Shown here one piece after another: positions 9,526-31,775 of a stretch of DNA of 42,996 bases (position 1 is the first letter of the stretch; each line of letters opens with the position of its first letter). Made by a program: the position numbers and the translations under genes. The notes beneath the pieces were generated by a model, which was given only the letters and a program-made list of their open reading frames with translations, was not told the origin of the DNA and searched no databases. Location: the NCBI GenBank assembly GCA_938091905.1, contig CALKOM010000017.1, positions 1-42,996 of the forward strand. The letters run 5' to 3'. This stretch comes from an uncultured Verrucomicrobiales bacterium (lineage in GTDB: Bacteria; Verrucomicrobiota; Verrucomicrobiia; Verrucomicrobiales; DEV007).

Positions 9526-9608
9526 GCTGCGAGAGACGGGGTGCGTCGGCTAGTTTTGGCTCACGAGCTGCGACCGTAAAGAGAATTGGCACCCAGAAAG
9601 AGAAGAAG

Positions 9609-9690
9609 TGCTCGAGGGGGGACTCGAACCCCCATGGATTGCTCCATACGCCCCTCAAGCGCACGCGTCTACCAATTTCGCCACCCGAGC
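9609..9690 (-). tRNA. tRNA-Leu (GAG), CCA not encoded
   Basis: GCTCGGG/CTCGAGC acceptor stem, D arm GGCGAAATTGGTAGACGC, anticodon loop TTGAGGG, long variable arm, GGTTCGAGTCC T loop, discriminator A. Confidence 0.97.
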
Positions 9691-13268: not shown

Positions 13269-13883
13269 CTAATGTTTGATCACCACGGGTGTGCCAACCT
13301 TCGTCTTCTCATAGATCACTGGCGCAATCTTCCTGGGCATGCGAATGCAGCCATGTGAAGCAGAGTAGGTGGGCACATAGCCCACGTGCATGCCAATACC
13401 AGTGTTGGTCAGCCGCATCCAGTATGGCATGCTCGCCCCAACGAACTTGCCGCCAGGCGGAATCTTGCTCTTCCGTATATCACTCCCAGCAACGCGTCCA
13501 CCACTCTCGTTGTAGATTACGCCATAGAGATTAGAGCGTTTGTCTTTCTTCTTCCCAATAATACTAAACGTCCCCGTTGGCGTAGGATGCGATTTCTTTC
13601 CCGGTGACACAGGCGTATCTATCGCCACTTCGTTAGCCTCGTTTAATACACGTGCACGGCGTTCACTCAGCGTGATCTCAATGCGCGACGTTTCTGGCGT
13701 GAGCAGTGGGAGCAATTCTTCATTCTTATAAATGAGCCTTTTAATGTTTGGCTGCGCCTTAAAAGCTTCATGCGCCTTCTGGTATTTAGTTAGCCCAGGT
13801 TCCTCCGGCTCTTCATCCTTTGGGAGCACAGAACACGAGGGGACTAGCAGGAGAAGGAAAGGAATCCAAAACGTCCATTTCAT
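13269..13883 (-). CDS. L,D-transpeptidase (YkuD family) lipoprotein
   Basis: Lipobox LVPSC; HPTPTGTF, MPYWMRL, GMHVG...ASHGCIRM. ATG at 13883. Confidence 0.92.
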   Translation of the reverse strand: MKWTFWIPFLLLLVPSCSVLPKDEEPEEPGLTKYQKAHEAFKAQPNIKRLIYKNEELLPLLTPETSRIEITLSERRARVLNEANEVAIDTPVSPGKKSHPTPTGTFSIIGKKKDKRSNLYGVIYNESGGRVAGSDIRKSKIPPGGKFVGASMPYWMRLTNTGIGMHVGYVPTYSASHGCIRMPRKIAPVIYEKTKVGTPVVIKH

Positions 13884-13928
13884 GAAACGCGAACGTGCCA
13901 CAAGAACGCACGCTGTAAAGTTTGAGCA

Positions 13929-16900
13929 TCAGCGGGAACGCTGCACATAAGCCTTCCCCTGTCGATAAAGCGCTAGTCTCTCCTCTAGTCGTTTGGCCAC
14001 CCCCATTTGATTGGCAGTCCGAGCCAGCTCGAGAGCACGCTGCGCAGTTACGATAGCCTCGGGAAACCTCCCGCCGGCAGCTTGTGCGGCTGCCAGGGTA
14101 TCAAGCGGCTCCGGCATGTCTCTCTGGCCGACGGCACGAACTTGCAGCGCGAGGCGCTCCGCCTCAGCAGGCTCACGTAAGTTGGAATCGGACGCCGTCG
14201 CGAGAAGCCAGGCAAGGCTATTCATCGCCGGAAGATGTCTCGGCTGCAACTTCAGCACCTCCCTATACTGGCCGATAGCAGGCTCATATTCACCGGCATT
14301 CTCAAAAAGAATGGCGAGCGCCACACGGGCCTCCAGATGTTGCGGTTGGTATTGAAGAGCACGAATGTGGGCTTGCCGCGCTTTTGTCAGTCGCTTCAAC
14401 TCGGCAAACTGGTTGCCAGCTTTATGGTAGATGCTAGCAACCGTCGAGCGGGGAATCCCATCGCTCCTCCCTGGCTTTGACACGTGATTCTCAAGATAGT
14501 TGTAGCCAGCATCCGTTTGATTGATCTCTAACAGTCGGTTGGGAATGGCCAGGAGATCTGCCGCGAGAGGGCGATTCAACCAGCGCCCTTCGAAAGGCAC
14601 GGCTTCATCACGAAACTTTTCATCGGGGACGGTGGCCAGCCTACGATCCTTCAGCACCGTCGCGACATCAAGTGACCCTTTGTAGAGAACCAGCAATTCT
14701 CCCGTAGGATTCACAAGGAGACTGCTAGGCAAGGCAGCTTCGCGTTCGCGTCCCGGCAGAGCCCGCTGCACAACATCAAAGGCTTCCAGAAAAGCGGGAG
14801 TAGCTTGTCCTCGAGTAAAGCTCGCGTCTGCCAGAGCAATCGTCTCTACAGCGGTTTCCACATTGACCAGGCACACCCTCACCTTCGCTTGAGCGAGGGC
14901 CTCTGCCTGGGCAGAAAAGGCACGTATTTCTGCTAGACAGGGTTGGCACCAAGATGCCCATAGCATGATCAAGGTAGGCTCACTCGCAGCTTTACTAGCA
15001 TCTTCCAACAGGCCCCTGGAATTAATATAGGGCAAAGGCGGCAACGGAAGCTTTGCGTGGGGCAGTAGCCGTGCACTCGAAGCTGAGTCAACGGTTGCCT
15101 GTGGTGCTTGCGCTAAGACGCTCGATAACCGCCTGGGCGCCAATTTCAGGGCACCTCCCTGTGTTAGCTCATAGGTGCGACCTGGAACCACGTGGCCGAA
15201 ATCCTCGATGTCGCCACCTGGCCAACGCACGCTGACTTGAACATCGGAAGAAGCCTCGGCGATGGGCAGCCCGAAGTGCATTACTTTGCTAGACTGACCA
15301 AGGTAGCCTTCGCCTGCACGGATTGTTCGCAACAACCGCTTCCCCTGACTCAAAGTCACGGTTACGCGGGCACCAATCGCATCCCGGTTGCAGTCCGTGC
15401 CAGAAAGCTGGAAAGCCACGAACCGTTCGTTTCCATCAAACTGATTGAGCAGGAAACGCAGCCGAGGCGCATTTCGATTCGCCTGCCAAACATCCAAATC
15501 GCCATCACCATCCCAGTCGGTGAATGCTTGGGCGCGACTATCAGATGGATAGTCAAAGTCAACCAACGACGAGATATCCGTGAACCGACCGTTCCCTTCA
15601 TTGAGGTAGCAGAGATTCCGTTCACGACCGCTCCAAGACTTGCCCTCTTCTAGCATCTTTCCCAACGCATCCCACGACCGGAGGTACCGTCGTCCAAGCT
15701 GCCGACTAGCCGCATCACTAGGCAGACTGTCAGGAGATTGCGACGTGACCCGTCGCCAGAAGAAACTTCACAAGTCGCCCGTGTCTTCTGCCGAAGTGAC
15801 CATGCCATTGGCGACGAGCAGGTCTTCGTGGCTATCGTTGTTCACGTCAGCAAAGTGCGAGCTCCAGGCCCAGCGACCCATGTTCACTCCAGCGGGCAGC
15901 GTAACGTCTTCGAACGTTCCATCTCCTCGATTCTGAAACAGCGAATTGCCACGGGCATGGCGCTTCATCGCTCGGTTTGCCTCCGCATCCAGCCCCTCAC
16001 GAAACTGACGCTGGTAGGCGATACGATTGCCTGCCGAAGAGAACATATTCCCCACGTAGACGTCCATGAGCCCATCTTGATTGTAGTCTGACCACGATAC
16101 CGACATGCCTGCTGAGATGTCTTCGACACCCGCGCGCGCCGCAATGTCTTCGAACACGCCGCCGTTGTTCTGATAGAAATTGTTCCGACCAAAGTCGTTT
16201 GCCACATAGAGATCCATGTCCCCGTCGTTGTCGAAGTCCTCCCATGAAGCCGCGTAACTAAACCGTCGATTGTTCATATCCATGCCGACTTCCTCGGTCA
16301 CGTCCCGGAAACGCCAATCACCAAGATTGGCCAAAAGGTGATTCCTCACGCTGTTTTTCGCATCATGATAGGGCATGGGCCGCCCTAAACCTACACTGTC
16401 AACACTGTGACTGAAGTAGCCGCAAATGTAGACATCGAGATCACCATCGTTGTCATAGTCCGCAGCAGCCATGGAACGAGCCACCGAGTCCGACTGGGCC
16501 ACGGCTTTCTGAACAAACTTCGCCTCGCCGTCATTGGCATAGAAGAAGACATGCCGCCCCGCTGCAAACACGAGATCCTGATCACCATCGTTATCCCAAT
16601 CAACAAGAAGAGCGCTGTTTGTGGACTCGAGGAAATTCACACCCGCTTCCCTCGATACATCGACCGCCGTGCCACCAGCTTGCTGCACAAACAAGCGATT
16701 GGGAAGACCACCACTCTCACAAACATACAGGTCATCCAGCCCATCGCCATTGACGTCGCCCACGGCAAGCCCATGAGGACCTGATACTTCAATCCCAAAC
16801 CTCCAATCCAATCGATCTCGCCAGTGATCGATCCCGTTCGCAAATTGGTCGCGAAAGGCGGCTTCCTTTCCAATCACGCTCCCGGTGGCGTCGGCAAAGA

Positions 16901-17576
16901 GCGGCAACGCACTGGCTTGGCGCTCGACCCGCTCATAGGAAAGCAACTCCGCAGATCGCAGCGTTACCGCTCCACCACCAGAGATATCCCAGAGAAGCTT
17001 CCACATGGCATTCTCTTGCACCTGCTCAGAAGCTCGATCCATGAGCAGCGAGACTGAAACCTTTCGGTCCGACAGCTCGGTGATATGAACGACCTTAAAA
17101 TGGGCCTCCATTTGGTTAGGCCAAGAAGCCAGCCATGTTGTTCCGTCTACCGTCTTCTTGGGTACACCTCGGCAAATCTCATAGGGAGGATTCTCGTAAA
17201 CCAACGGAAGCCCGTCTGCTGTGGTAAGGCTACCCCTAAACTCAGACGCCAACTTCAAGGGACTCGGCCCATCACGCCTCGCACGAACCCAAACGTCAAA
17301 TGCCTTCATCGTCTTAAGGATGTTGCCAGACACCACTTCTGTAGACCAGCCGTCTTGCGATGGATCCACACGCACCATCTCGCTCTGCAGCGCCGTGTCG
17401 AACCGATCCGACGACAATCCTGGCACAGCGCTTAGTTCATTAGAACTTGTAGCCACTGATACCGAAGGTTCTCCAGAAGCTCGTGAGGTCGGTTCCTTCT
17501 CACCGCACCCGCACACCGCGCCGGCGCAAACCAGCATGACGAGCCTAACTAGGGAGACCATCCGAACATTGTTCAT
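13929..17576 (-). CDS. Putative selenoprotein lipoprotein (~1215 aa): FG-GAP/VCBS repeats, Sec603, ASPIC/UnbV (CRTAC1-like), thioredoxin-like WCQPC, TPR
   Basis: ORFs 15768-17576 and 13929-15665 share a frame, with only the TGA at 15768-15770 between them: DTGDL*SFFWRRVTSQSP...GKSWSGRERN. Many DxDxDG repeats, RDAIGARVTV..GEGYLGQSS, WASWCQPC, and C-terminal TPRs (NSLAWLLAT..DTLAAAQA). The domain call is strong; Sec decoding is inferred. Confidence 0.78.
15740..15756 (-). promoter_or_regulatory. Putative bacterial SECIS element
   Basis: mRNA: UGA-AGUUUCUUCUG (11 nt)-GCGACG-GGUCA-CGUCGC. Perfect 6-bp stem, loop starting GG, 17 nt in total. Confidence 0.72.
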
Positions 17577-17614: not shown

Positions 17615-18742
17615 CTACTTCCGTGAGCGCTCGTAGTCATAGACAGCCTTACCCAGGGCAATCATGAATGGTTCGCCGATGGTATCGTATTCGTAGACGT
17701 TGTCGTTGTAGATCTGGTTAGCATTCACATGGATGGCAGTAGACAGAAAGAAGGCAATGTCATGGTCTTCATCGACGATGTAGGCATTGTCGATCATGTA
17801 TCCATAGGCCTGGCCGGATTTATTGTAACAACGTAACGTGTCGCGAATTGGCTGTTTCGCCCATCCAAGAAAGTTTTTCACATAGGTGTCTGGTTCCTCC
17901 CGAATGGCCGCATCGGTCGTGGCCGCACATTCGCGTGGGAACTGACCCATCGTCGTTTTCACAAACTCGCGATCCGCTGGGGTGAGCCTTAGCCCTTCTT
18001 CGCTCGGAAAGTAAACCTCGCGGACCAAGAGATGCTGCTCGTGTAACGGGAAGACGTTCTTATGCGAGAAATCCATGGGCTCATTTACGAGAACGCCTGA
18101 ATCGAGATAGCCCACGCCTTTGCGCAACGTCTTGCCAGACCTGCCTGCGGGAGAACTCATCAAGGAAAGACTCTCCGAATGAAGTAACTCACCTTTAGAA
18201 TCGAGAAAACGGATCGGATTAGCGAACGTCATGTGATTCAATCCCAACGCATGGACAATCTGCGTGTCGGTTAGCCCCAAAGCTCGCAGCCGCTGTTGAC
18301 ATTTCTCTTCACCCACAAAGGCAAAGAGACGATTAAACGCTGCATTGTCGCTGACGATAAAGATCCGCCGCACATCCTCCGCGACCGATGACGGCTCACC
18401 GTCGTACGGAGGCATCGACATCGTCGTCTCACGGTTCAATCTTGGCCCAGCTAGATTGGCGACTTTCTCCAGAGCAAAGAGGGCCACTGGAAACTTCACC
18501 GTGCTAGCCGGGTAGAAGTAAGTCTCCTTATTCAGATGCCAACCATGCTCAATAAACTTGGGCCCCTCTTCCGTCTTCTCGATCTGCACGTAGAGCACCT
18601 GGACTTCGTTATCCGGCTTGTTAGCGATACTATTAAGAGGTGCAGGTAATTCCGAAAGTAACCGCGAAAGCAAAGGACTATCGTTTGCCTCAGTGAAACT
18701 CATGCATAGAAACAGAACAGAGAGCGTCTTCGATAGCCACAT
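17615..18742 (-). CDS. Exported serine hydrolase, class A beta-lactamase-like fold
   Basis: FYPASTVK (SxxK), VSDNAAFN (SDN), NKSG (KTG-like). Confidence 0.85.
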   Translation of the reverse strand: MWLSKTLSVLFLCMSFTEANDSPLLSRLLSELPAPLNSIANKPDNEVQVLYVQIEKTEEGPKFIEHGWHLNKETYFYPASTVKFPVALFALEKVANLAGPRLNRETTMSMPPYDGEPSSVAEDVRRIFIVSDNAAFNRLFAFVGEEKCQQRLRALGLTDTQIVHALGLNHMTFANPIRFLDSKGELLHSESLSLMSSPAGRSGKTLRKGVGYLDSGVLVNEPMDFSHKNVFPLHEQHLLVREVYFPSEEGLRLTPADREFVKTTMGQFPRECAATTDAAIREEPDTYVKNFLGWAKQPIRDTLRCYNKSGQAYGYMIDNAYIVDEDHDIAFFLSTAIHVNANQIYNDNVYEYDTIGEPFMIALGKAVYDYERSRK

Positions 18743-18825: not shown

Positions 18826-19743
18826 ATGCGCCGACCCCTCGCATGGCTCCTGCTACTTGCCGTCATTTCCATGGCGACGGGCTGCCTGGAAGTCCATCAG
18901 CAGTTCACGATCAATCCAGACCGTAGTGCGAAAGTTCGCGTGAAATTGGCTTTCGATCTCGGTCTGCTCGAACGCGTCCAGGCAGAAACCGGCATCGACA
19001 TGAAGAATGAGGTCAATGAGGCCGAGGCGACGATGCGCAGTCTTGCTCGGCAATGCATCGCAACCGCGACCGGGGTAGATGCATGGACGGACTACAGCAT
19101 GGAGATTCGTCCCGGCGAATCCATCACTGTGTGGATGACGGCCTACGTACCAGAAGTCACCCATTTCAAACTAAACCCGAACAACGGCGAAATCCCTAAC
19201 ATGACACTTCGAATGTCACGTAGCGCAGCGAGTGAAGAAAGGTGGAGCGTGATTCTTCCTGGACTCAATGATCACAAAGTCAACGAGGAGGAGCCAGTTC
19301 AGCCCCTGAGCAATGAAGAGGTCGCTGAGGTGCTGGCGGAACGTCGAACGCAGTTTGATGAAGAGTCGGCAGAGTCCAAGGTGCTCTTTGAATCACTCAA
19401 GATCACTTCGGCACTACGATTTCCTGGCAAGGTGGTCAAGACCACCAACGCAACACGGACGTCACGTCAAGAAGTGACCGTCTCCTTCGAGGGAAAGCGC
19501 TTCTACGCCATGATGGAAAATATCTTGGCCGACGATCAGTTGGCACCCAAGGCCTTTCGAGATGGAGCCGAACTTCATAGTAGCCTTACCTTGCCCGGTA
19601 ATCAGATCAATGCGTGGCTCTTTGGAGAGAAAGCTCCCGTCAGTGTCACCGTGACACCAGGCGAGCGGGCTTTATTTGACTATGAGAAAGAGCTCGCTAT
19701 CGCCAAGGCTTCACCGCCACCCGAGTTTCCTGAAGACGAGTAG
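18826..19743 (+). CDS. Hypothetical lipoprotein
   Basis: Lipobox MATGC followed by LEVHQQFTINPDRSAKV; FPGKVVKTTNA. Confidence 0.75.
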   Translation: MRRPLAWLLLLAVISMATGCLEVHQQFTINPDRSAKVRVKLAFDLGLLERVQAETGIDMKNEVNEAEATMRSLARQCIATATGVDAWTDYSMEIRPGESITVWMTAYVPEVTHFKLNPNNGEIPNMTLRMSRSAASEERWSVILPGLNDHKVNEEEPVQPLSNEEVAEVLAERRTQFDEESAESKVLFESLKITSALRFPGKVVKTTNATRTSRQEVTVSFEGKRFYAMMENILADDQLAPKAFRDGAELHSSLTLPGNQINAWLFGEKAPVSVTVTPGERALFDYEKELAIAKASPPPEFPEDE

Positions 19744-25972: not shown

Positions 25973-28900
25973 ATGCATTTCACCCCCATGACAATTCGGC
26001 GCACGTTCCTTCACGCCGGGGCTGCTTTGGCCCTGTGCCTAGGCAATTCACTCGTGGCGGCCGACCTGACCACGACCGCTCTCGCCAAACCTGCACCACC
26101 CACTGGAGACACCCTCTTTACCTCCGTTCCCATCAACAATTCGGGCGTTGAGCTGCCTCCTGTCATGCATGACCCTAGCGACCCGCTTGGCTTCCTCTAT
26201 GGCTCCGGCTTCGAATACGGTGGCCTCGCCATGGGCGACGTGAATGCCGACGGCAGACCAGATCTATTCATCGCCGGATCTCCAGGACGCAGCCGGCTCT
26301 TTCTTCAAAACGCCGATTTCAAGTTTGAAGACGTCACTGACGCTGCTGGAGTGAACCCTGGGAAAGCTTGGGGCCGCGGCTCCTCCTTTGCAGACATTGA
26401 TAACGACGGTGACCTTGATCTCTACTTGGCCATCCACGACGCGCCCAATCAGCTATTTATCAATGAAGGCGTGAGTGACTCCGGCCTACCCAAATTTCGC
26501 GAGTCCGCTGCTTCCTACGGCCTCAATTTGAGTGATGCCAGCCTCATGCCGTCGTTCTGTGACTATGACAGGGATGGCGACCTTGACCTCTACCTTCTCA
26601 CAAACCAATTCCATTGGCCAGGCGGTGCCGTTCCCAAAGACATCATCAAATTGAACAACGGTCGTCCCTATTTGGAACCCAAGCACGCCAAATACTTTCA
26701 GCTCGTTTCCGCCGGCAAAGGCAAGGTTACCTACAAGAATCTCGGAAGACGCGACTTCCTCTTTCGCAATGACGGCAATGGTCGCTTCACTGAAGTTAGC
26801 AAAGATTCCGGCCTCTCACTTGCGCGAGGGCGTGGCCTTTCCTCAACCTGGTGGGACTATGACGGCGATGGCTGGCTCGATCTCTATGTCGGTAATGACT
26901 GGGAAGACCCCGATCGACTTTATCGCAACCAAGGCGATGGCACCTTCAAGGATGTCGTCAAAGAGACGGTCCCGCATACCACCTGGTTCTCCATGGGTTC
27001 GGACATTGGAGATCTCAACAGCGACGGCATCATGGATCTCTTCAGCGCCGACATGTCCGGAACCACCCACTACAAACGTAAGATCAGCATGGGTTCCATG
27101 AATGCGGAGCAGAATGCTTTCCTCGTAACCGCACGCCCGCCTCAATACATGCGCAATGCCGCCTTTCTCGGCACGGGGACCAAGCGAGTGTTAGAAGGCG
27201 CCTATCTCATGGGCCTTGCCAATTCTGATTGGTCGTGGTGCGTCAAGCTTCGCGACTTCGACAACGACGGGCACTGCGACGTCTTCATCACCAATGGCAT
27301 GGCGCAGAATATCGTCGCCACGGAAACTAGCGATGGCGGCAAACCCGGCGCCGACGATCTACGCAAAGAGCGTAACCTCGCCTTCCGCAACGACGGACAT
27401 GCTCACTTCAGCGATGTCAGCAAGGACTGGGGCATTGATTACTTCGGCCTCAGCCTAGCATCTTCCTGCGGTGACCTCGATCGCGACGGCGACCTAGATC
27501 TCATTGTCATCAATCAGGACGAATCACCCTCAATCTATCGCAACGGCTCCACAAGCAACCGCTGCACCGTGCAATTGAAAGGCACCCTCTCAAACAAACA
27601 CGGACTGGGTTCCATCCTGACTGTCGAAACCGCCACATCCACACAAACACACCAGGCCCTACTTACTAGAGGCTATCTTGGCTCAGACGACCCTATCATA
27701 ACGATTGGACTGGGAAACGCGAAACAGATTAAGAAGCTCACCGTCAACTGGCCCAGCGGACAGGTCAGCCAATTGGCTAACATTGACGCAAATCAAGCGC
27801 TTATCATCACCGAACCATCCGCCAAACCCACTCAAACCGCCACACCCCCGAGTCAGCCTCAGTTCTCTCGATCGGACATCTTTAAGCAAACCCCTCACCG
27901 CGAGTCGCCCGTGGATGACTTCGCTCGCGAACCGCTTCTTCCAAACAAGCTATCACAACTCGGCCCCGCCATCGCCGTCGGAGACATTGATGGTGACGGA
28001 GACGACGACCTCGCCCAAGGAGGAGCCCGTGGTCAAACCACCATGTTGCTCCTCAACAATGGCAAAGGGGGCTACGATGCGCGTTCGCTAAGCGGAACCG
28101 AAGCTTTCGAAGACATGGGCCTGCTCTGGATCGATGTCGACAATGATGGGGACCTCGATCTCTATGCAGTCAGCGGAGGCGTAGAATGCTCCCCTGGTGA
28201 ACCCGTTCTCCAAGATCGCCTATTCCTCTCAGAACCTGGGCTACGCTTCCGAATCGCCCCGCAAGGCACCTTGCCAAAGATGTTAGATAGCGGCGGCCCA
28301 ATCACAGCTGCAGACTTTGATCGCGACGGCGATATGGACATCTTCGTTGGCAGTCGCGTCGTTCCTGGCGCGTTCACCACGACACCAACAAGTCATTTGT
28401 TAGAAAACATCGGTGGCAAGTTTCGCGACATCACGCAATCCCACGCGAAAGGACTCGCTAAAACGGGCATGGTCACCTCAGCCACGTTTGCCGATATCGA
28501 CAACGATGGTTGGCAAGACCTACTCGTGGGCCACGAATGGGGACCTATCAAAGTCTTTCACAACAAGGACGGCAAGTTCGTCGACCAAACCACCGCCGCA
28601 GGTCTAAGTAAATTCACTGGCTGGTGGAATAGTCTCGCCGCTGGCGATCTAGACAATGACGGCGATCTCGATCTCGTCGCCGGAAACTTTGGGCACAACA
28701 CCAAGTATCACGCGACACCAGAGAAACCGGTAATGATCTTCGCAGGCAAGTTCGGCACCGACCATCTCCAGCTCGTCGAAGCCGAGTATGAAAACGACAG
28801 CCTCTTCCCGGTGCGAGGCCGCAGTTGCTCCACCCGAGCCATTCCCCATCTCGCCAATAAATTCACCACGTTCCACGACTTTGCTCTAGCAGAAGTCAAC

Positions 28901-29587
28901 GAAATCTACGAAAAGGAACACTTCGCCCAAGCACAACGCCACGAAGTCACCACGCTGGACACCGCCATCTTCATCAATGACGGTAACGGCAAGTTCACAT
29001 TCAAGCCACTCCCCCACCTCGCCCAGATCGCCCCCGTCTATGGAATCACCCTAACAGATCTCGACGGCGACGGCCACCGTGACATCTACCTCGCCCAAAA
29101 CTTCTACAACCCGCAGCCCGAAACGGGACGCATGGCCGGGGGCCTAAGCGTTTGGTTGCGCGGCGACGGGAAGCTAGGCTTCAAACCTGTCTGGCCCAAA
29201 GAAAGCGGCCTCCTGGTCCCAGACGACGCCAAAAGCACGGTCCTCACAGACATTAACAATGACCGTGTTCCCGATCTTGTCATTGGCGTGAATGACAGGC
29301 CCCCCATCGTCTATCTAAATCGCCAAAAAGCAAGGCACAAGATCATCGGTATCCGGCTTGCCGGTCAGGGCCTTGGCGCACGCCTCACCTTGAAAACAAA
29401 GTCTGGCTCCACCCAGACCGCTGAGATTAACGCAGGCGGCGGCTATCTTTCCCAATCTAGCACACGCCGAACCTTTAGTATTCCAAAGAACGACACGATT
29501 ACCGCCGTCACCGTCCAATGGCCCAACGGCACCAGGCGTGTCTACAAAGACAATCTTGCGAACGACGAGATTATCTTACGACCATAG
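25973..29587 (+). CDS. Secreted FG-GAP/VCBS repeat protein with two ASPIC/UnbV-like domains (CRTAC1-like)
   Basis: Signal peptide; many D-x-D-x-D-G-D-L-D repeats; GLGSILTV..RGYLGS and GLGARLTL..GGGYLSQS..VQWP. Confidence 0.92.
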   Translation: MHFTPMTIRRTFLHAGAALALCLGNSLVAADLTTTALAKPAPPTGDTLFTSVPINNSGVELPPVMHDPSDPLGFLYGSGFEYGGLAMGDVNADGRPDLFIAGSPGRSRLFLQNADFKFEDVTDAAGVNPGKAWGRGSSFADIDNDGDLDLYLAIHDAPNQLFINEGVSDSGLPKFRESAASYGLNLSDASLMPSFCDYDRDGDLDLYLLTNQFHWPGGAVPKDIIKLNNGRPYLEPKHAKYFQLVSAGKGKVTYKNLGRRDFLFRNDGNGRFTEVSKDSGLSLARGRGLSSTWWDYDGDGWLDLYVGNDWEDPDRLYRNQGDGTFKDVVKETVPHTTWFSMGSDIGDLNSDGIMDLFSADMSGTTHYKRKISMGSMNAEQNAFLVTARPPQYMRNAAFLGTGTKRVLEGAYLMGLANSDWSWCVKLRDFDNDGHCDVFITNGMAQNIVATETSDGGKPGADDLRKERNLAFRNDGHAHFSDVSKDWGIDYFGLSLASSCGDLDRDGDLDLIVINQDESPSIYRNGSTSNRCTVQLKGTLSNKHGLGSILTVETATSTQTHQALLTRGYLGSDDPIITIGLGNAKQIKKLTVNWPSGQVSQLANIDANQALIITEPSAKPTQTATPPSQPQFSRSDIFKQTPHRESPVDDFAREPLLPNKLSQLGPAIAVGDIDGDGDDDLAQGGARGQTTMLLLNNGKGGYDARSLSGTEAFEDMGLLWIDVDNDGDLDLYAVSGGVECSPGEPVLQDRLFLSEPGLRFRIAPQGTLPKMLDSGGPITAADFDRDGDMDIFVGSRVVPGAFTTTPTSHLLENIGGKFRDITQSHAKGLAKTGMVTSATFADIDNDGWQDLLVGHEWGPIKVFHNKDGKFVDQTTAAGLSKFTGWWNSLAAGDLDNDGDLDLVAGNFGHNTKYHATPEKPVMIFAGKFGTDHLQLVEAEYENDSLFPVRGRSCSTRAIPHLANKFTTFHDFALAEVNEIYEKEHFAQAQRHEVTTLDTAIFINDGNGKFTFKPLPHLAQIAPVYGITLTDLDGDGHRDIYLAQNFYNPQPETGRMAGGLSVWLRGDGKLGFKPVWPKESGLLVPDDAKSTVLTDINNDRVPDLVIGVNDRPPIVYLNRQKARHKIIGIRLAGQGLGARLTLKTKSGSTQTAEINAGGGYLSQSSTRRTFSIPKNDTITAVTVQWPNGTRRVYKDNLANDEIILRP

Positions 29588-29588
29588 C

Positions 29589-31775
29589 ATGATATCCACA
29601 ACGCTAGCGAAGCTAGAGCTCCTAGCAATCATGCTACTCGGCCTCACCTTGGGCAATGCATCAGCTCAGGCCAAATCGCCAACCGCAGCGAACGAAAGCT
29701 TGGAGACCATCCTCGCCACCATTCGCAGCCGCACCAACGACGACCACCCCTTCTTCGGCGACGCTGCCGCGCGAAAGCTCCGCCGAGAGTTAAAGAGCCT
29801 TGTCCCCCGGAATGATCCCGGCACGTACCTGAAGACCTTGATGGTCCTTGGGAACCAGGAAATCGATCTCGGGAACCTCGACGAAGGCATCGCCAGGCTA
29901 ACCGAAGCCTATGACTTTCTGAATCAACTCAAAGTCCCGAATTCCATTCGGGCCGAGATCTGCGCCAGCCTCGGAAATGCCTATCTCCGATTGGCAGAAT
30001 CCGAGAACTGTTGTGCCAGCTACTCCCCCGAAAGCTGCATTGTGCCACTCACAGGCAACGCCATTCATCAGAAACGCCATGGGTCAGAACAGGCGATCAA
30101 GTACTTTGCCGAGGTCTTCCCTCTCCCGAAGGTCGATCAGAGTCTAAAACTCAAGTGCGCCTGGCTTACCAATGTCGCCTACATGACACTAGGTGAGTAT
30201 CCAGACAAGGTTCCCTCAGGCATCCGCATTCCTCCAGCCACATTCCGGTCCAAGCTCCCCTTCCCTCAGTTCGCGAACATATCTCACACACTCGGACTCG
30301 ATCAATTTAACCTCGGCGGCGGAGCCATCATGGATGACTTCGATGGTGATCACGACCTCGATCTGATCACGTCTTCCTGGGACACCGCAGTTTCTATGCA
30401 GTTCCACCAGAATCAAGGGAACGGAACGTTCACCAACCGCAGCGTAACAGCGGGCTTGGCCAACCAGTTAGGCGGCCTCAACCTCGTCCAAGCAGACTAT
30501 GACAACGACGGCGACCTTGATGTCTATGTCTTGCGCGGCGCATGGCTCGGCGCCCTCGGCAAACATCCCAACTCGCTCCTTCAGAACCAAGGGGACGGCA
30601 CCTTCATCGATCGCACCCTCGAATCGGGTCTCGGAAAGTACCACTACCCCTCGCAAACAGCTGCCTGGGCCGATTACGATAACGACGGTGACCTTGACCT
30701 CTATGTCGGCAACGAAACCATCCCGAACGAAATCACGTCTCCTTGCCAGCTCTTCAGGAATCAGGGCAACGGCACCTTCATTGAATGTGCAAAGGCTGCC
30801 GGAGTCACCAACGAACGCCTCGCCAAAGGCGTTGCTTGGGGAGACATCGACGGCGACCGATGGCCCGACCTCATCGTCTCGAACCTCGGCGAAAAGAACC
30901 GACTCTATCACAATCAAGGTGACGGGACGTTCGTCGATCGCGCTGCTGAGCTAGGAGTAGACCGCCCAATCTTCAGCTTTCCTTTATGGACGTGGGACTA
31001 CAACAATGATGGTCTCCTAGATCTCTTCATCTCTTCCTACGACCGTAATGTTGGCAACGTGGTCATACACAGCATGGGCCAGCCCACCAAAACGGAACCA
31101 CCTGGACACTATCAAGGCACTTCCAAAGGCCAATTCACCAACAGAGCGAAAGCCCAAGGGCTCACCCACCCCATGATGCCCATGGGAAGCAATATCGGTG
31201 ACCTCAACAACGACGGCTACCTCGATTTCTACCTCGGCACAGGCGAACCACAGATTTCCGTCATTCTACCTAACATGATGTACCTAAATCTTCGTGGTGC
31301 CCGATTCGCTGACATCACTATGGCTGGCGGCTTTGGGCATCTTCAGAAAGGCCATGCCGTGGTCTTCGCTGACTATGACGAAGATGGCGACCAAGATGTC
31401 TTCGAACAAATGGGCGGCGCCAAACCGGTCGACAAGTATCGCGACGCCCTCTACGCCAATCCAGGCTTCAAGAACAACTGGCTAAAAGTTAAACTCGTCG
31501 GCACGCAGTCAAATCGCTCCGCCATCGGTGCCCACATAAGCGCCGAGCTTGTCGAAGGTGACAAGAAACGCACGGTCTACCGCCACATCGGCAGCGGCGG
31601 CAGCTTTGGAGCCAACCCACTCCGCGAACACATCGGCCTAGGGAAAGCCACCCAAGTTGCCAAGCTTTACATTTATTGGCCCACGTCGGACCAACGCCAA
31701 ACCTTTGACAATGTCAGCGGCAACCGATTCATCGAAATTACCGAAGGCTCCAACGAGCTCCGAGTCATTCGCTGA
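29589..31775 (+). CDS. Secreted TPR + FG-GAP + ASPIC/UnbV protein (CRTAC1-like)
   Basis: N-terminal TPR-like helices with ENCC...SCIVP; DYDNDGDLD repeats; GFGHLQKGH; NRSAIGA..SGGSFGANP. ATG 29589 directly follows the upstream stop. Confidence 0.92.
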   Translation: MISTTLAKLELLAIMLLGLTLGNASAQAKSPTAANESLETILATIRSRTNDDHPFFGDAAARKLRRELKSLVPRNDPGTYLKTLMVLGNQEIDLGNLDEGIARLTEAYDFLNQLKVPNSIRAEICASLGNAYLRLAESENCCASYSPESCIVPLTGNAIHQKRHGSEQAIKYFAEVFPLPKVDQSLKLKCAWLTNVAYMTLGEYPDKVPSGIRIPPATFRSKLPFPQFANISHTLGLDQFNLGGGAIMDDFDGDHDLDLITSSWDTAVSMQFHQNQGNGTFTNRSVTAGLANQLGGLNLVQADYDNDGDLDVYVLRGAWLGALGKHPNSLLQNQGDGTFIDRTLESGLGKYHYPSQTAAWADYDNDGDLDLYVGNETIPNEITSPCQLFRNQGNGTFIECAKAAGVTNERLAKGVAWGDIDGDRWPDLIVSNLGEKNRLYHNQGDGTFVDRAAELGVDRPIFSFPLWTWDYNNDGLLDLFISSYDRNVGNVVIHSMGQPTKTEPPGHYQGTSKGQFTNRAKAQGLTHPMMPMGSNIGDLNNDGYLDFYLGTGEPQISVILPNMMYLNLRGARFADITMAGGFGHLQKGHAVVFADYDEDGDQDVFEQMGGAKPVDKYRDALYANPGFKNNWLKVKLVGTQSNRSAIGAHISAELVEGDKKRTVYRHIGSGGSFGANPLREHIGLGKATQVAKLYIYWPTSDQRQTFDNVSGNRFIEITEGSNELRVIR

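Follow-up and report, generated by a model that had tools for sequence, protein, structure and literature searches.

Is a TGA that parts two open reading frames (ORFs) of one and the same frame a stop codon, or is it read by the cell as an amino acid? The question is raised by a locus in a 42,996-nucleotide (nt) stretch of DNA from an uncultured Verrucomicrobiales bacterium (GenBank assembly GCA_938091905.1, contig CALKOM010000017.1; this whole stretch is called the window below), where a standard ORF finder calls as two ORFs what is here read as a single gene (13929-17576) for a CRTAC1-like FG-GAP propeller protein. All features of this split gene lie on the minus strand; the first-pass annotation, made by a model from the letters alone, gave no strand, although the features that it named stand. 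The upstream ORF (17576-15768) starts with ATG and encodes 602 amino acids (aa), the downstream ORF (15665-13929) starts with TTG and encodes 578 aa, and translation of the minus strand bears out the original observation that they share one frame with open sequence between them, since the 102 nt from the TGA (15770-15768) to the TTG read ...DTGDL-U-SFFWRRVTSQSPDSLPSDAASRQLGRRYLRSWDALGKM, where U stands for the residue encoded by the TGA. The second ORF begins LEEGKSWSGRERN, which is not a hydrophobic N-terminus, so that it indeed has no signal peptide of its own. When the TGA is read through, translation of 13929-17576 gives one open frame of 1215 residues (1215 codons and a terminal TGA stop at 13929-13931), in which the TGA at residue 603 is the sole internal stop, and in relatives homology spans it. 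TGA is an ordinary stop here, as it ends 10 of the 25 long ORFs in the window, this gene among them. Judging from the comparisons presented below, 17576-13929 is one gene encoding a ~1215-residue protein that is predicted to be exported, and its UGA (15770-15768) is, with very high probability, decoded as selenocysteine (Sec) 603.

Conservation of the in-frame UGA

A six-frame search of 41 genomes, i.e. the source genome and 40 relatives, at a threshold of E <= 1e-30 returned family matches in 19, most of the listed rows having exactly one TGA. When residues 540-719 were aligned to the loci of the relatives and of the source genome, this gave 34 distinct genes whose TGAs all fall into one column, within the motif DL-U-S(F/V)(F/Y)WR(Q/R)V(V/T)SQSP. 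The source genome alone has nine paralogs, including this gene, each with this TGA (contigs C17, C44, C6, C113, C23, C1, C84, C98 and C134). A pattern-driven scan of one genome per GTDB species, the proportions of which are not a census, gave at least 80 loci, 65 of which aligned over the column. Among these 65 listed loci, the Sec column is occupied by TGA in 57, by TGC (Cys) in two, by Ala in three and by Ser, Gly and Ile in one each, several of the non-TGA rows being weak alignments.

The 34 genes, the loci of the pattern scan and acidobacterial loci together make up a set of distinct homologs in which TGA is found in the same column in 90 of those listed (at least 90, as the set is scan-derived), at 40-78% identity and in Planctomycetota, Verrucomicrobiota (Akkermansiaceae, Roseibacillus) and Acidobacteriota. 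These homologs are related to one another and their counts are not independent events. In a distant subfamily of 29-35% identity (10 genes in nine loci), TGA is at the same column in 10/10. The concern, raised in the first-pass annotation, that the TGA might be unique to this strain is thus removed and, given the conservation in 90 homologs, a read error in the source genome would be irrelevant. A Cys (TGC) form, L116/L141, is found in a Bryobacterales genome that has two TGA forms as well (DL-C-SFFWRRVVAESP), and a second Cys form among the listed loci is the distant L119.

Two of the relatives call for a separate description. L052 (G008:C14) is the sole full-length close homolog among the listed relatives with no in-frame TGA or internal stop; 3 nt are missing from the site (GDL-KLFWRQ), while an out-of-frame TGA triplet, the hairpin and a CPSC motif are all kept. 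L052 has either lost the TGA very recently or owes its state to two indels in the assembly of this 79%-complete genome. L051 (G002:C141), an ortholog from the same genus, is in pieces; a longer T-run right after the TGA shifts the frame, there is a TAG as well, and it is a pseudogene or an assembly error.

A SECIS-like hairpin and the machinery to read it

As first proposed, a perfect hairpin starts exactly 11 nt after the UGA, at 15756-15740. This putative selenocysteine insertion sequence (SECIS) of 17 nt follows an 11-nt spacer (15767-15757) and consists of a perfect 6-base-pair stem (GCGACG, 15756-15751, with CGTCGC, 15745-15740) and a G-GU-C-A loop (GGTCA, 15750-15746). Six standard pairs in one fixed register would be expected by chance in approximately 0.3% of cases by our own arithmetic, (6/16)^6. 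In this register nt 15-20, counted from the U of UGA, pair with nt 26-31, and the 90 distinct TGA forms have either all six pairs (81 forms) or five of them (nine forms). Nine non-TGA forms that keep the same FFWRQVV/WR register never have all six (5, 5, 4, 4, 4, 4, 3, 2 and 2 pairs), and the mean minimum free energy of the 21-nt segment is -9.5 kcal/mol for the TGA forms vs -4.1 kcal/mol for the non-TGA forms.

The stem also covaries. Across 81 distinct rows 98.1% of the cells are paired and changes on both sides are seen at two of the six pairs, pair 18-28 occurring as GU (41), AU (26), GC (6), CG (3), UG (3) and UA (1), and pair 20-26 as AU (71) and GC (9). The covariation score is equalled in none of 500 shuffles, and sliding the register lowers it in every case. 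The prediction of a covarying hairpin specific to TGA alleles has therefore held, with compensatory changes in the stem and an incomplete stem in 9/9 non-TGA homologs. Some of the compensations pair a synonymous Arg codon with a Ser-to-Ala or Ser-to-Pro change, or pair R/Q with T/V, and the structure of the RNA is thus shaping the sequence of the protein. In the loop, positions 1 and 4 (columns 21 and 24 of alignment A3; 15750 and 15747 in the window, minus strand) are third-codon positions where change is synonymous, and they are complementary in 97.5% of the 81 rows (GC 66, CG 6, AU 4, GU 3), with an invariant G22 and U23 between them. This suggests that loop positions 1 and 4 form one more, closing base pair that leaves the GU flipped out and the fifth loop base as a bulge. 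The stem of the distant subfamily has a different sequence (GCGCGC...), with a GGUC loop at the same distance.

The reference for such an element is the SECIS of E. coli fdhF, which the review PMC8659212 describes as an upper stem-loop of 17 nt (nt 15-31), placed 11 nt from the UGA, with U17 bulged and G23/U24 apical. On that description the two are alike in the size and place of the stem-loop (nt 15-31), the 11-nt spacer, the apical G-U and the position of the element inside the coding sequence; they differ in that no U is bulged here, the GU occupies nt 22-23 instead of nt 23-24 and loop positions 1 and 4 are complementary here. The protein encoded here, unlike its counterpart, is unrelated to formate dehydrogenase. 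The hairpin thus has what marks a SelB-type SECIS, namely a stem-loop ~11 nt after the UGA, G and U in the apical loop and compensatory change.

The source genome (6.19 Mb in 212 contigs, 95% complete) has the whole set of genes for which a check had been advised. The tRNA-Sec (selC) scores 68.5 bits against a cut-off of 47 and is called tRNA-SeC(tca) by ARAGORN, while selB (284.8 bits), selA (489.2 bits) and selD (266.8 bits) are all over their curated cut-offs. Among the 41 genomes, a TGA form is accompanied by a selA match in 17/17 cases and is found in 0/19 genomes without a selA match, and five genomes have selA without the family; the selA match is partial in G016 and in two pieces in G008, and the relatives are not independent, so that these counts are given without a statistical test. 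In G010 and G012 the search matched distant forms only, none of them with TGA. As a side observation, the selD match (L019, G000:C162:524-1435) lies in a 797-aa open frame near the start of its contig, and selD may be fused to another domain.

Taken together, the conservation of codon and hairpin, the machinery and the co-occurrence with selA support what was first read from the sequence, i.e. that the UGA encodes Sec603 of a ~1215-aa protein. The fdhF-type hairpin at 15756-15740, inside the coding sequence and 11 nt after the UGA, would serve to recruit SelB with Sec-tRNA(Sec). Several observations nevertheless weigh against this scenario. First, in the 120 best uninterrupted homologs the Sec column is occupied by Ser (47), Ala (46), Gly (18), Asn (5), Glu (1), Asp (1), Leu (1) or a gap (1), with Cys in none. 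Homologs had been expected to have either TGA or Cys, which is borne out for TGA and for the rare L116/L141 form, but the usual residue in uninterrupted forms is Ser, Ala or Gly; such scarcity of Cys is unusual for a catalytic Sec and shows that the fold works without a redox residue at this position. Secondly, FFWRQVV is conserved even without the TGA, and G22 and U23 are the first two bases of the conserved Val codon. Part of the nucleotide conservation of the hairpin is thus attributable to the protein, and for this reason nucleotide conservation alone proves little and it is the comparison of alleles that is informative. Thirdly, no Rfam family is found at the hairpin, the sole match up to E = 10 in 15600-15850 being a chance lncRNA, and no NCBIfam selenoprotein model reaches its cut-off. 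Finally, the bulged U17, a feature specific to E. coli fdhF, is absent from the perfect 6-base-pair stem. Bacterial SECIS elements in general are not known to need such a bulge on the 5' arm.

How do other explanations of the UGA fare? The one that survives best, which we nonetheless regard as very unlikely, is that the UGA is read by a standard tRNA (a near-cognate for Trp, Cys or Arg) or that the code is reassigned, with no selenium involved. This would keep the frame just as well, and the Ser, Ala and Gly homologs indicate that the position tolerates ordinary residues. However, there is exactly one TGA per ~1200 codons and always in this column, TGA terminates many of the long ORFs in the window, the fdhF-type hairpin is at SelB distance, TGA forms are confined to selA genomes (17/17), and a sense codon, as used in Acidobacteriota, would be cheaper if no special residue were needed. 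Still less probable, to the point of being a marginal option, is termination at the UGA followed by a restart at the TTG at 15665, which would yield two separate proteins, a secreted propeller of 602 residues and a cytoplasmic product with the UnbV, thioredoxin and TPR parts, and would leave the hairpin to serve termination or reinitiation. A TTG start 34 codons downstream and the normal use of UGA as a stop in this genome speak for it. Against this, the 34 codons from TGA to TTG are conserved as protein (SFFWRQVVSQSP...Y..W.AL) in TGA and uninterrupted forms alike and are modelled as two helices packed into the fold, with a predicted local distance difference test (pLDDT) of 84-94 by block; moreover, the second product would be without a signal peptide, the hairpin occurs only with the TGA and TGA forms occur only where selA does. 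The notion that the TGA is a nonsense mutation, a pseudogene or a sequencing error, leaving two fragments or nothing functional, for which one could cite the two ORFs seen by a standard ORF finder and the damaged or altered sequence near the site in the L051 ortholog and the L052 relative, is already refuted by the same-column TGA in 90 distinct homologs of three phyla and in a 30%-identical subfamily, by the open and conserved frame over the 102-nt gap and by nine paralogs in the same genome with exactly this TGA. Insertion of Sec at the UGA is the reading much preferred here, and the explanation as a whole is in our opinion highly likely, the chemistry proposed below being put lower, at an even chance.

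Architecture of the protein and a possible role for Sec603

From N- to C-terminus, the read-through product consists of an alpha/beta domain, a CRTAC1-like FG-GAP beta-propeller, a UnbV_ASPIC domain, a TlpA-like thioredoxin-fold domain with a CQPC motif, and TPR repeats. Inspection of the N-terminus points to a signal peptide with a lipobox-like ...AVCG-C (residues 1-24, 17505-17576). In most of the homologs inspected (about 22 N-termini) the lipobox is clearer, with a hydrophobic run followed by [GAS]C, the others resembling ordinary signal peptides, and the protein is probably a lipoprotein. The propeller blades upstream of the Sec (residues about 265-602, 15771-16784) are matched by Pfam FG-GAP_3 in five stretches (1e-40) and by the fold of murine CRTAC1 (9etn_A). 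They are followed, beyond the Sec, by the UnbV_ASPIC domain (residues 733-802, 15171-15380; PF07593, 2.2e-15, 56.7 bits against a cut-off of 23.4).

An AlphaFold2 model was made of residues 26-1215, with the TGA entered as Cys and from the 67-row alignment A1 (its numbering is that of the protein minus 25), and has a mean pLDDT of 91.7 and a predicted template modelling (pTM) score of 0.90. Its best fold match is CRTAC1 9etn_A (E 9.8e-24, template modelling (TM) score, target, 0.70), which is also matched by sequence (2.8e-15). With FG-GAP repeats and a UnbV_ASPIC domain over the Pfam cut-offs and the fold of CRTAC1, the protein belongs to the CRTAC1/ASPIC-UnbV group. Like murine CRTAC1 (cartilage acidic protein 1, here the crystal structure 9etn), it combines an FG-GAP propeller with a UnbV_ASPIC domain, but identity is 18%, and three features belong to the bacterial subfamily, namely the helix insert with DL-U-SFFWR, the domain resembling TlpA and the tail of TPR repeats. 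The insert comprises two helices, residues 603-613 and 622-643 (15648-15770), which are helices 578-588 and 597-618 in the numbering of the model, where the 10-residue blocks covering them have a mean pLDDT of 84-94. The Sec is the first residue of helix 578-588, after the last blade strand and a 13-residue loop. The first-pass annotation had placed it in a propeller loop rather than a CxxU motif; it does lie outside such a motif and in the propeller region, but according to the model it opens a helix of the two-helix insert. A helix N-terminus is the position where a reactive Cys or Sec is classically found.

The thioredoxin-fold domain (residues 833-969, 14670-15080) is related to TlpA and ResA. 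Pfam AhpC-TSA matches residues 863-960 (28.6 bits against a cut-off of 26), TlpA of Bradyrhizobium (PDB 1jfu_A) matches residues 833-969 at 1.6e-6, and ResA (2h1b_C) matches the fold with a TM-score (target) of 0.75. Its CQPC motif (residues 877-880, 14937-14948), supported by the model and by comparison of homologs, starts helix 853-864 of the model, as in thioredoxin-fold enzymes. The thioredoxin fold and a CxxC at a helix N-terminus make this a TlpA-like oxidoreductase domain. With 32 bits, the NCBIfam TlpA equivalog NF047696 does not reach its cut-off of 230, and the domain is best described as a relative of TlpA, not TlpA itself. It shares with thioredoxin-fold selenoproteins the fold, a W-C-x-x-C at a helix N-terminus and (predicted here) export; in those proteins, however, the Sec is inside the thioredoxin motif, while here the motif is all-Cys and the Sec belongs to another domain, ~274 residues further upstream. 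Helical TPR repeats at the C-terminus (residues about 1043-1205, 13962-14450) are indicated by Pfam TPR families (1046-1139), by the helices of the model and by PDB TPR matches.

Could the Sec and the CxxC act together? A CxxC is found 227-295 residues downstream of the site in 82 of the 84 assessable TGA forms vs one of nine non-TGA forms, six more TGA forms being too short. In alignment A1, it is present in 22/22 Sec forms vs 2/45 uninterrupted forms, in which Ser, Ala or Val mostly takes the place of the first Cys, the second often being kept. This link holds within Acidobacteriota and within the single genome G041, which has two TGA forms with a CxxC and one Cys form without. In a shorter subfamily of six genes (L158, L160, L161, L162, the second gene of L165, and L038), ~210-235 residues follow the TGA, and both the thioredoxin and the TPR parts are missing. 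In four of these six genes the Sec site reads U-x-C (USC or UPC), as if a vicinal Cys replaced the fused CxxC domain.

On the strength of the co-occurrence of Sec and CxxC and of the U-x-C found where the thioredoxin domain is missing, we propose a relay from Sec603 to Cys877 and Cys880. Sec603, at the N-terminus of its helix, would be the reactive centre of an extracytoplasmic redox enzyme and would react with an oxidised substrate held by the propeller. Cys877, the first Cys of the CxxC, would then attack Sec603, Cys880 would resolve the resulting selenenylsulfide, and reducing equivalents for the thioredoxin domain would come from a CcdA/DsbD-type reductant in the membrane, as they do for TlpA. 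An earlier version of this idea, that Sec could be recycled by the protein's own WCQPC domain, likewise has the co-occurrence of TGA and CxxC as its one support. The relay is a reasonable proposal, to which we would give an even chance.

On the other side of the balance, two of the 84 TGA forms (L083 and L118) are missing the CxxC and two of the six short forms are missing the U-x-C. In addition, the uninterrupted forms, which are mostly acidobacterial, have a conserved His368, His398, Cys443, His580, His762 and Cys1139 (A1), where the Sec forms have Ser, Gly, Ala, Asn, Ser and Ala, respectively. The His/Cys set may represent a different, metal-type site, and part of the contrast may be phylogeny. 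These observations would favour an alternative in which Sec, although inserted, does not partner the fused CxxC. It might instead coordinate a metal or metalloid, or work alone as a peroxidatic residue that an external thiol reduces, and its link with the CxxC would be one of shared ancestry only: some TGA forms lack the CxxC, some short forms have neither the thioredoxin domain nor a U-x-C, and the non-Sec forms hint at a metal-type site in the family. This alternative is a substantial, if less than even, possibility. What speaks against it is that the link is seen within Acidobacteriota and within G041, that non-Sec forms have mainly lost the first Cys, which is the nucleophilic one, and that U-x-C appears where the thioredoxin domain is missing.

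Place in the literature, significance and gene neighbourhood

The first-pass annotation did not know of this architecture as a characterised selenoprotein family. That statement needs to be amended, since what by its description is the same family is already listed, as candidates only, in Table S9 of Kim et al. (2016, PLoS One, PMC4807772). These ASPIC/UnbV FG-GAP selenoprotein candidates are from Planctomycetes; in every case an in-frame UGA divides the annotation into two neighbouring genes, a SECIS was predicted by bSECISearch in three of the four, and their closest NCBI hit has Gly at the site. In the available part of that publication the candidates are listed, with no conservation analysis, CxxC link, structure or distribution beyond two genomes. 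They are like the present gene in Pfam description, in the split at UGA and in the SECIS, a likeness by description rather than by compared sequences, and the Gly of the closest NCBI hit fits the Ser, Ala or Gly of the acidobacterial homologs found here. By this description the family is not new but already in print, and this gene is a new member. No literature was found that ties selenoprotein or selenocysteine to ASPIC, CRTAC1 or UnbV. FG-GAP, ASPIC, CRTAC1 and propeller are not mentioned in the main texts of deep-Sep (PMC12013277), of a 2026 review of prokaryotic selenoproteomes (PMC13188914) and of BSepDB (PMC13326102), nor in the part searched of one BSepDB supplement, although the supplements of deep-Sep and of the review could list the family; the main text of the review likewise has no PF07593, PF13517 or PF01839.

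As far as Sec is concerned, the family almost certainly represents widespread and barely documented selenium proteins of bacteria, multi-phylum in distribution and predicted to be exported. More tentatively, and with somewhat less than even confidence, CRTAC1-like proteins might be seen as a new class of extracytoplasmic selenoenzyme in which a Sec at a helix N-terminus within the propeller is serviced by a fused TlpA-type CxxC domain or, where this domain is missing, by a vicinal U-x-C. If true, the family would extend over at least three phyla and, with nine or more paralogs per genome in the host genus, could be the largest selenoprotein family there, which would imply unusually large selenoproteomes in that genus. 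Likewise, the replacement of Sec by Ser, Ala or Gly (not Cys), with loss of the CxxC, would amount to a switch between redox and non-redox function on the same scaffold. Since gene callers split these genes and databases hold the halves apart, the family is misannotated and the use of selenium is undercounted in Planctomycetota, Verrucomicrobiota and Acidobacteriota, which concerns marine and soil bacteria of these three phyla. A Sec outside CxxU/UxxC motifs, the link with the CxxC and counterparts with Ser, Ala or Gly rather than Cys provide handles on the biochemistry of bacterial CRTAC1/ASPIC proteins. These three features are also relevant to the question of why Sec is retained or lost.

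Two adjoining FG-GAP/UnbV_ASPIC paralogs are present in the window on the plus strand, at 25973-29587 (1204 aa) and 29538-31775 (745 aa), and both are without an in-frame TGA, without DL-x-SFFWR and without a thioredoxin domain. The former had been described as running unbroken through the site that is equivalent to the UGA. It does align on both sides (DVFITNGM and KERNLAFRN), but the DL-x-SFFWR motif is missing and BLAST identity between these anchors is almost nil. As Sec and TGA-free paralogs are thus both in the window, Sec and non-Sec branches of the superfamily are found ~8 kb apart.

The neighbours on the same strand are a beta-lactamase-family protein (17615-18742, minus strand), 38 nt away, and a YkuD L,D-transpeptidase (13269-13901, minus strand), 27 nt away. 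Beside orthologs, a beta-lactamase-like gene recurs only at L051, the ORF at 18826-19743 only at L023 and the YkuD gene at none, and since the neighbours hardly recur, no operon argument is made. The sole tRNA in the window is a tRNA-Leu(gag) at 9608-9690 on the minus strand.

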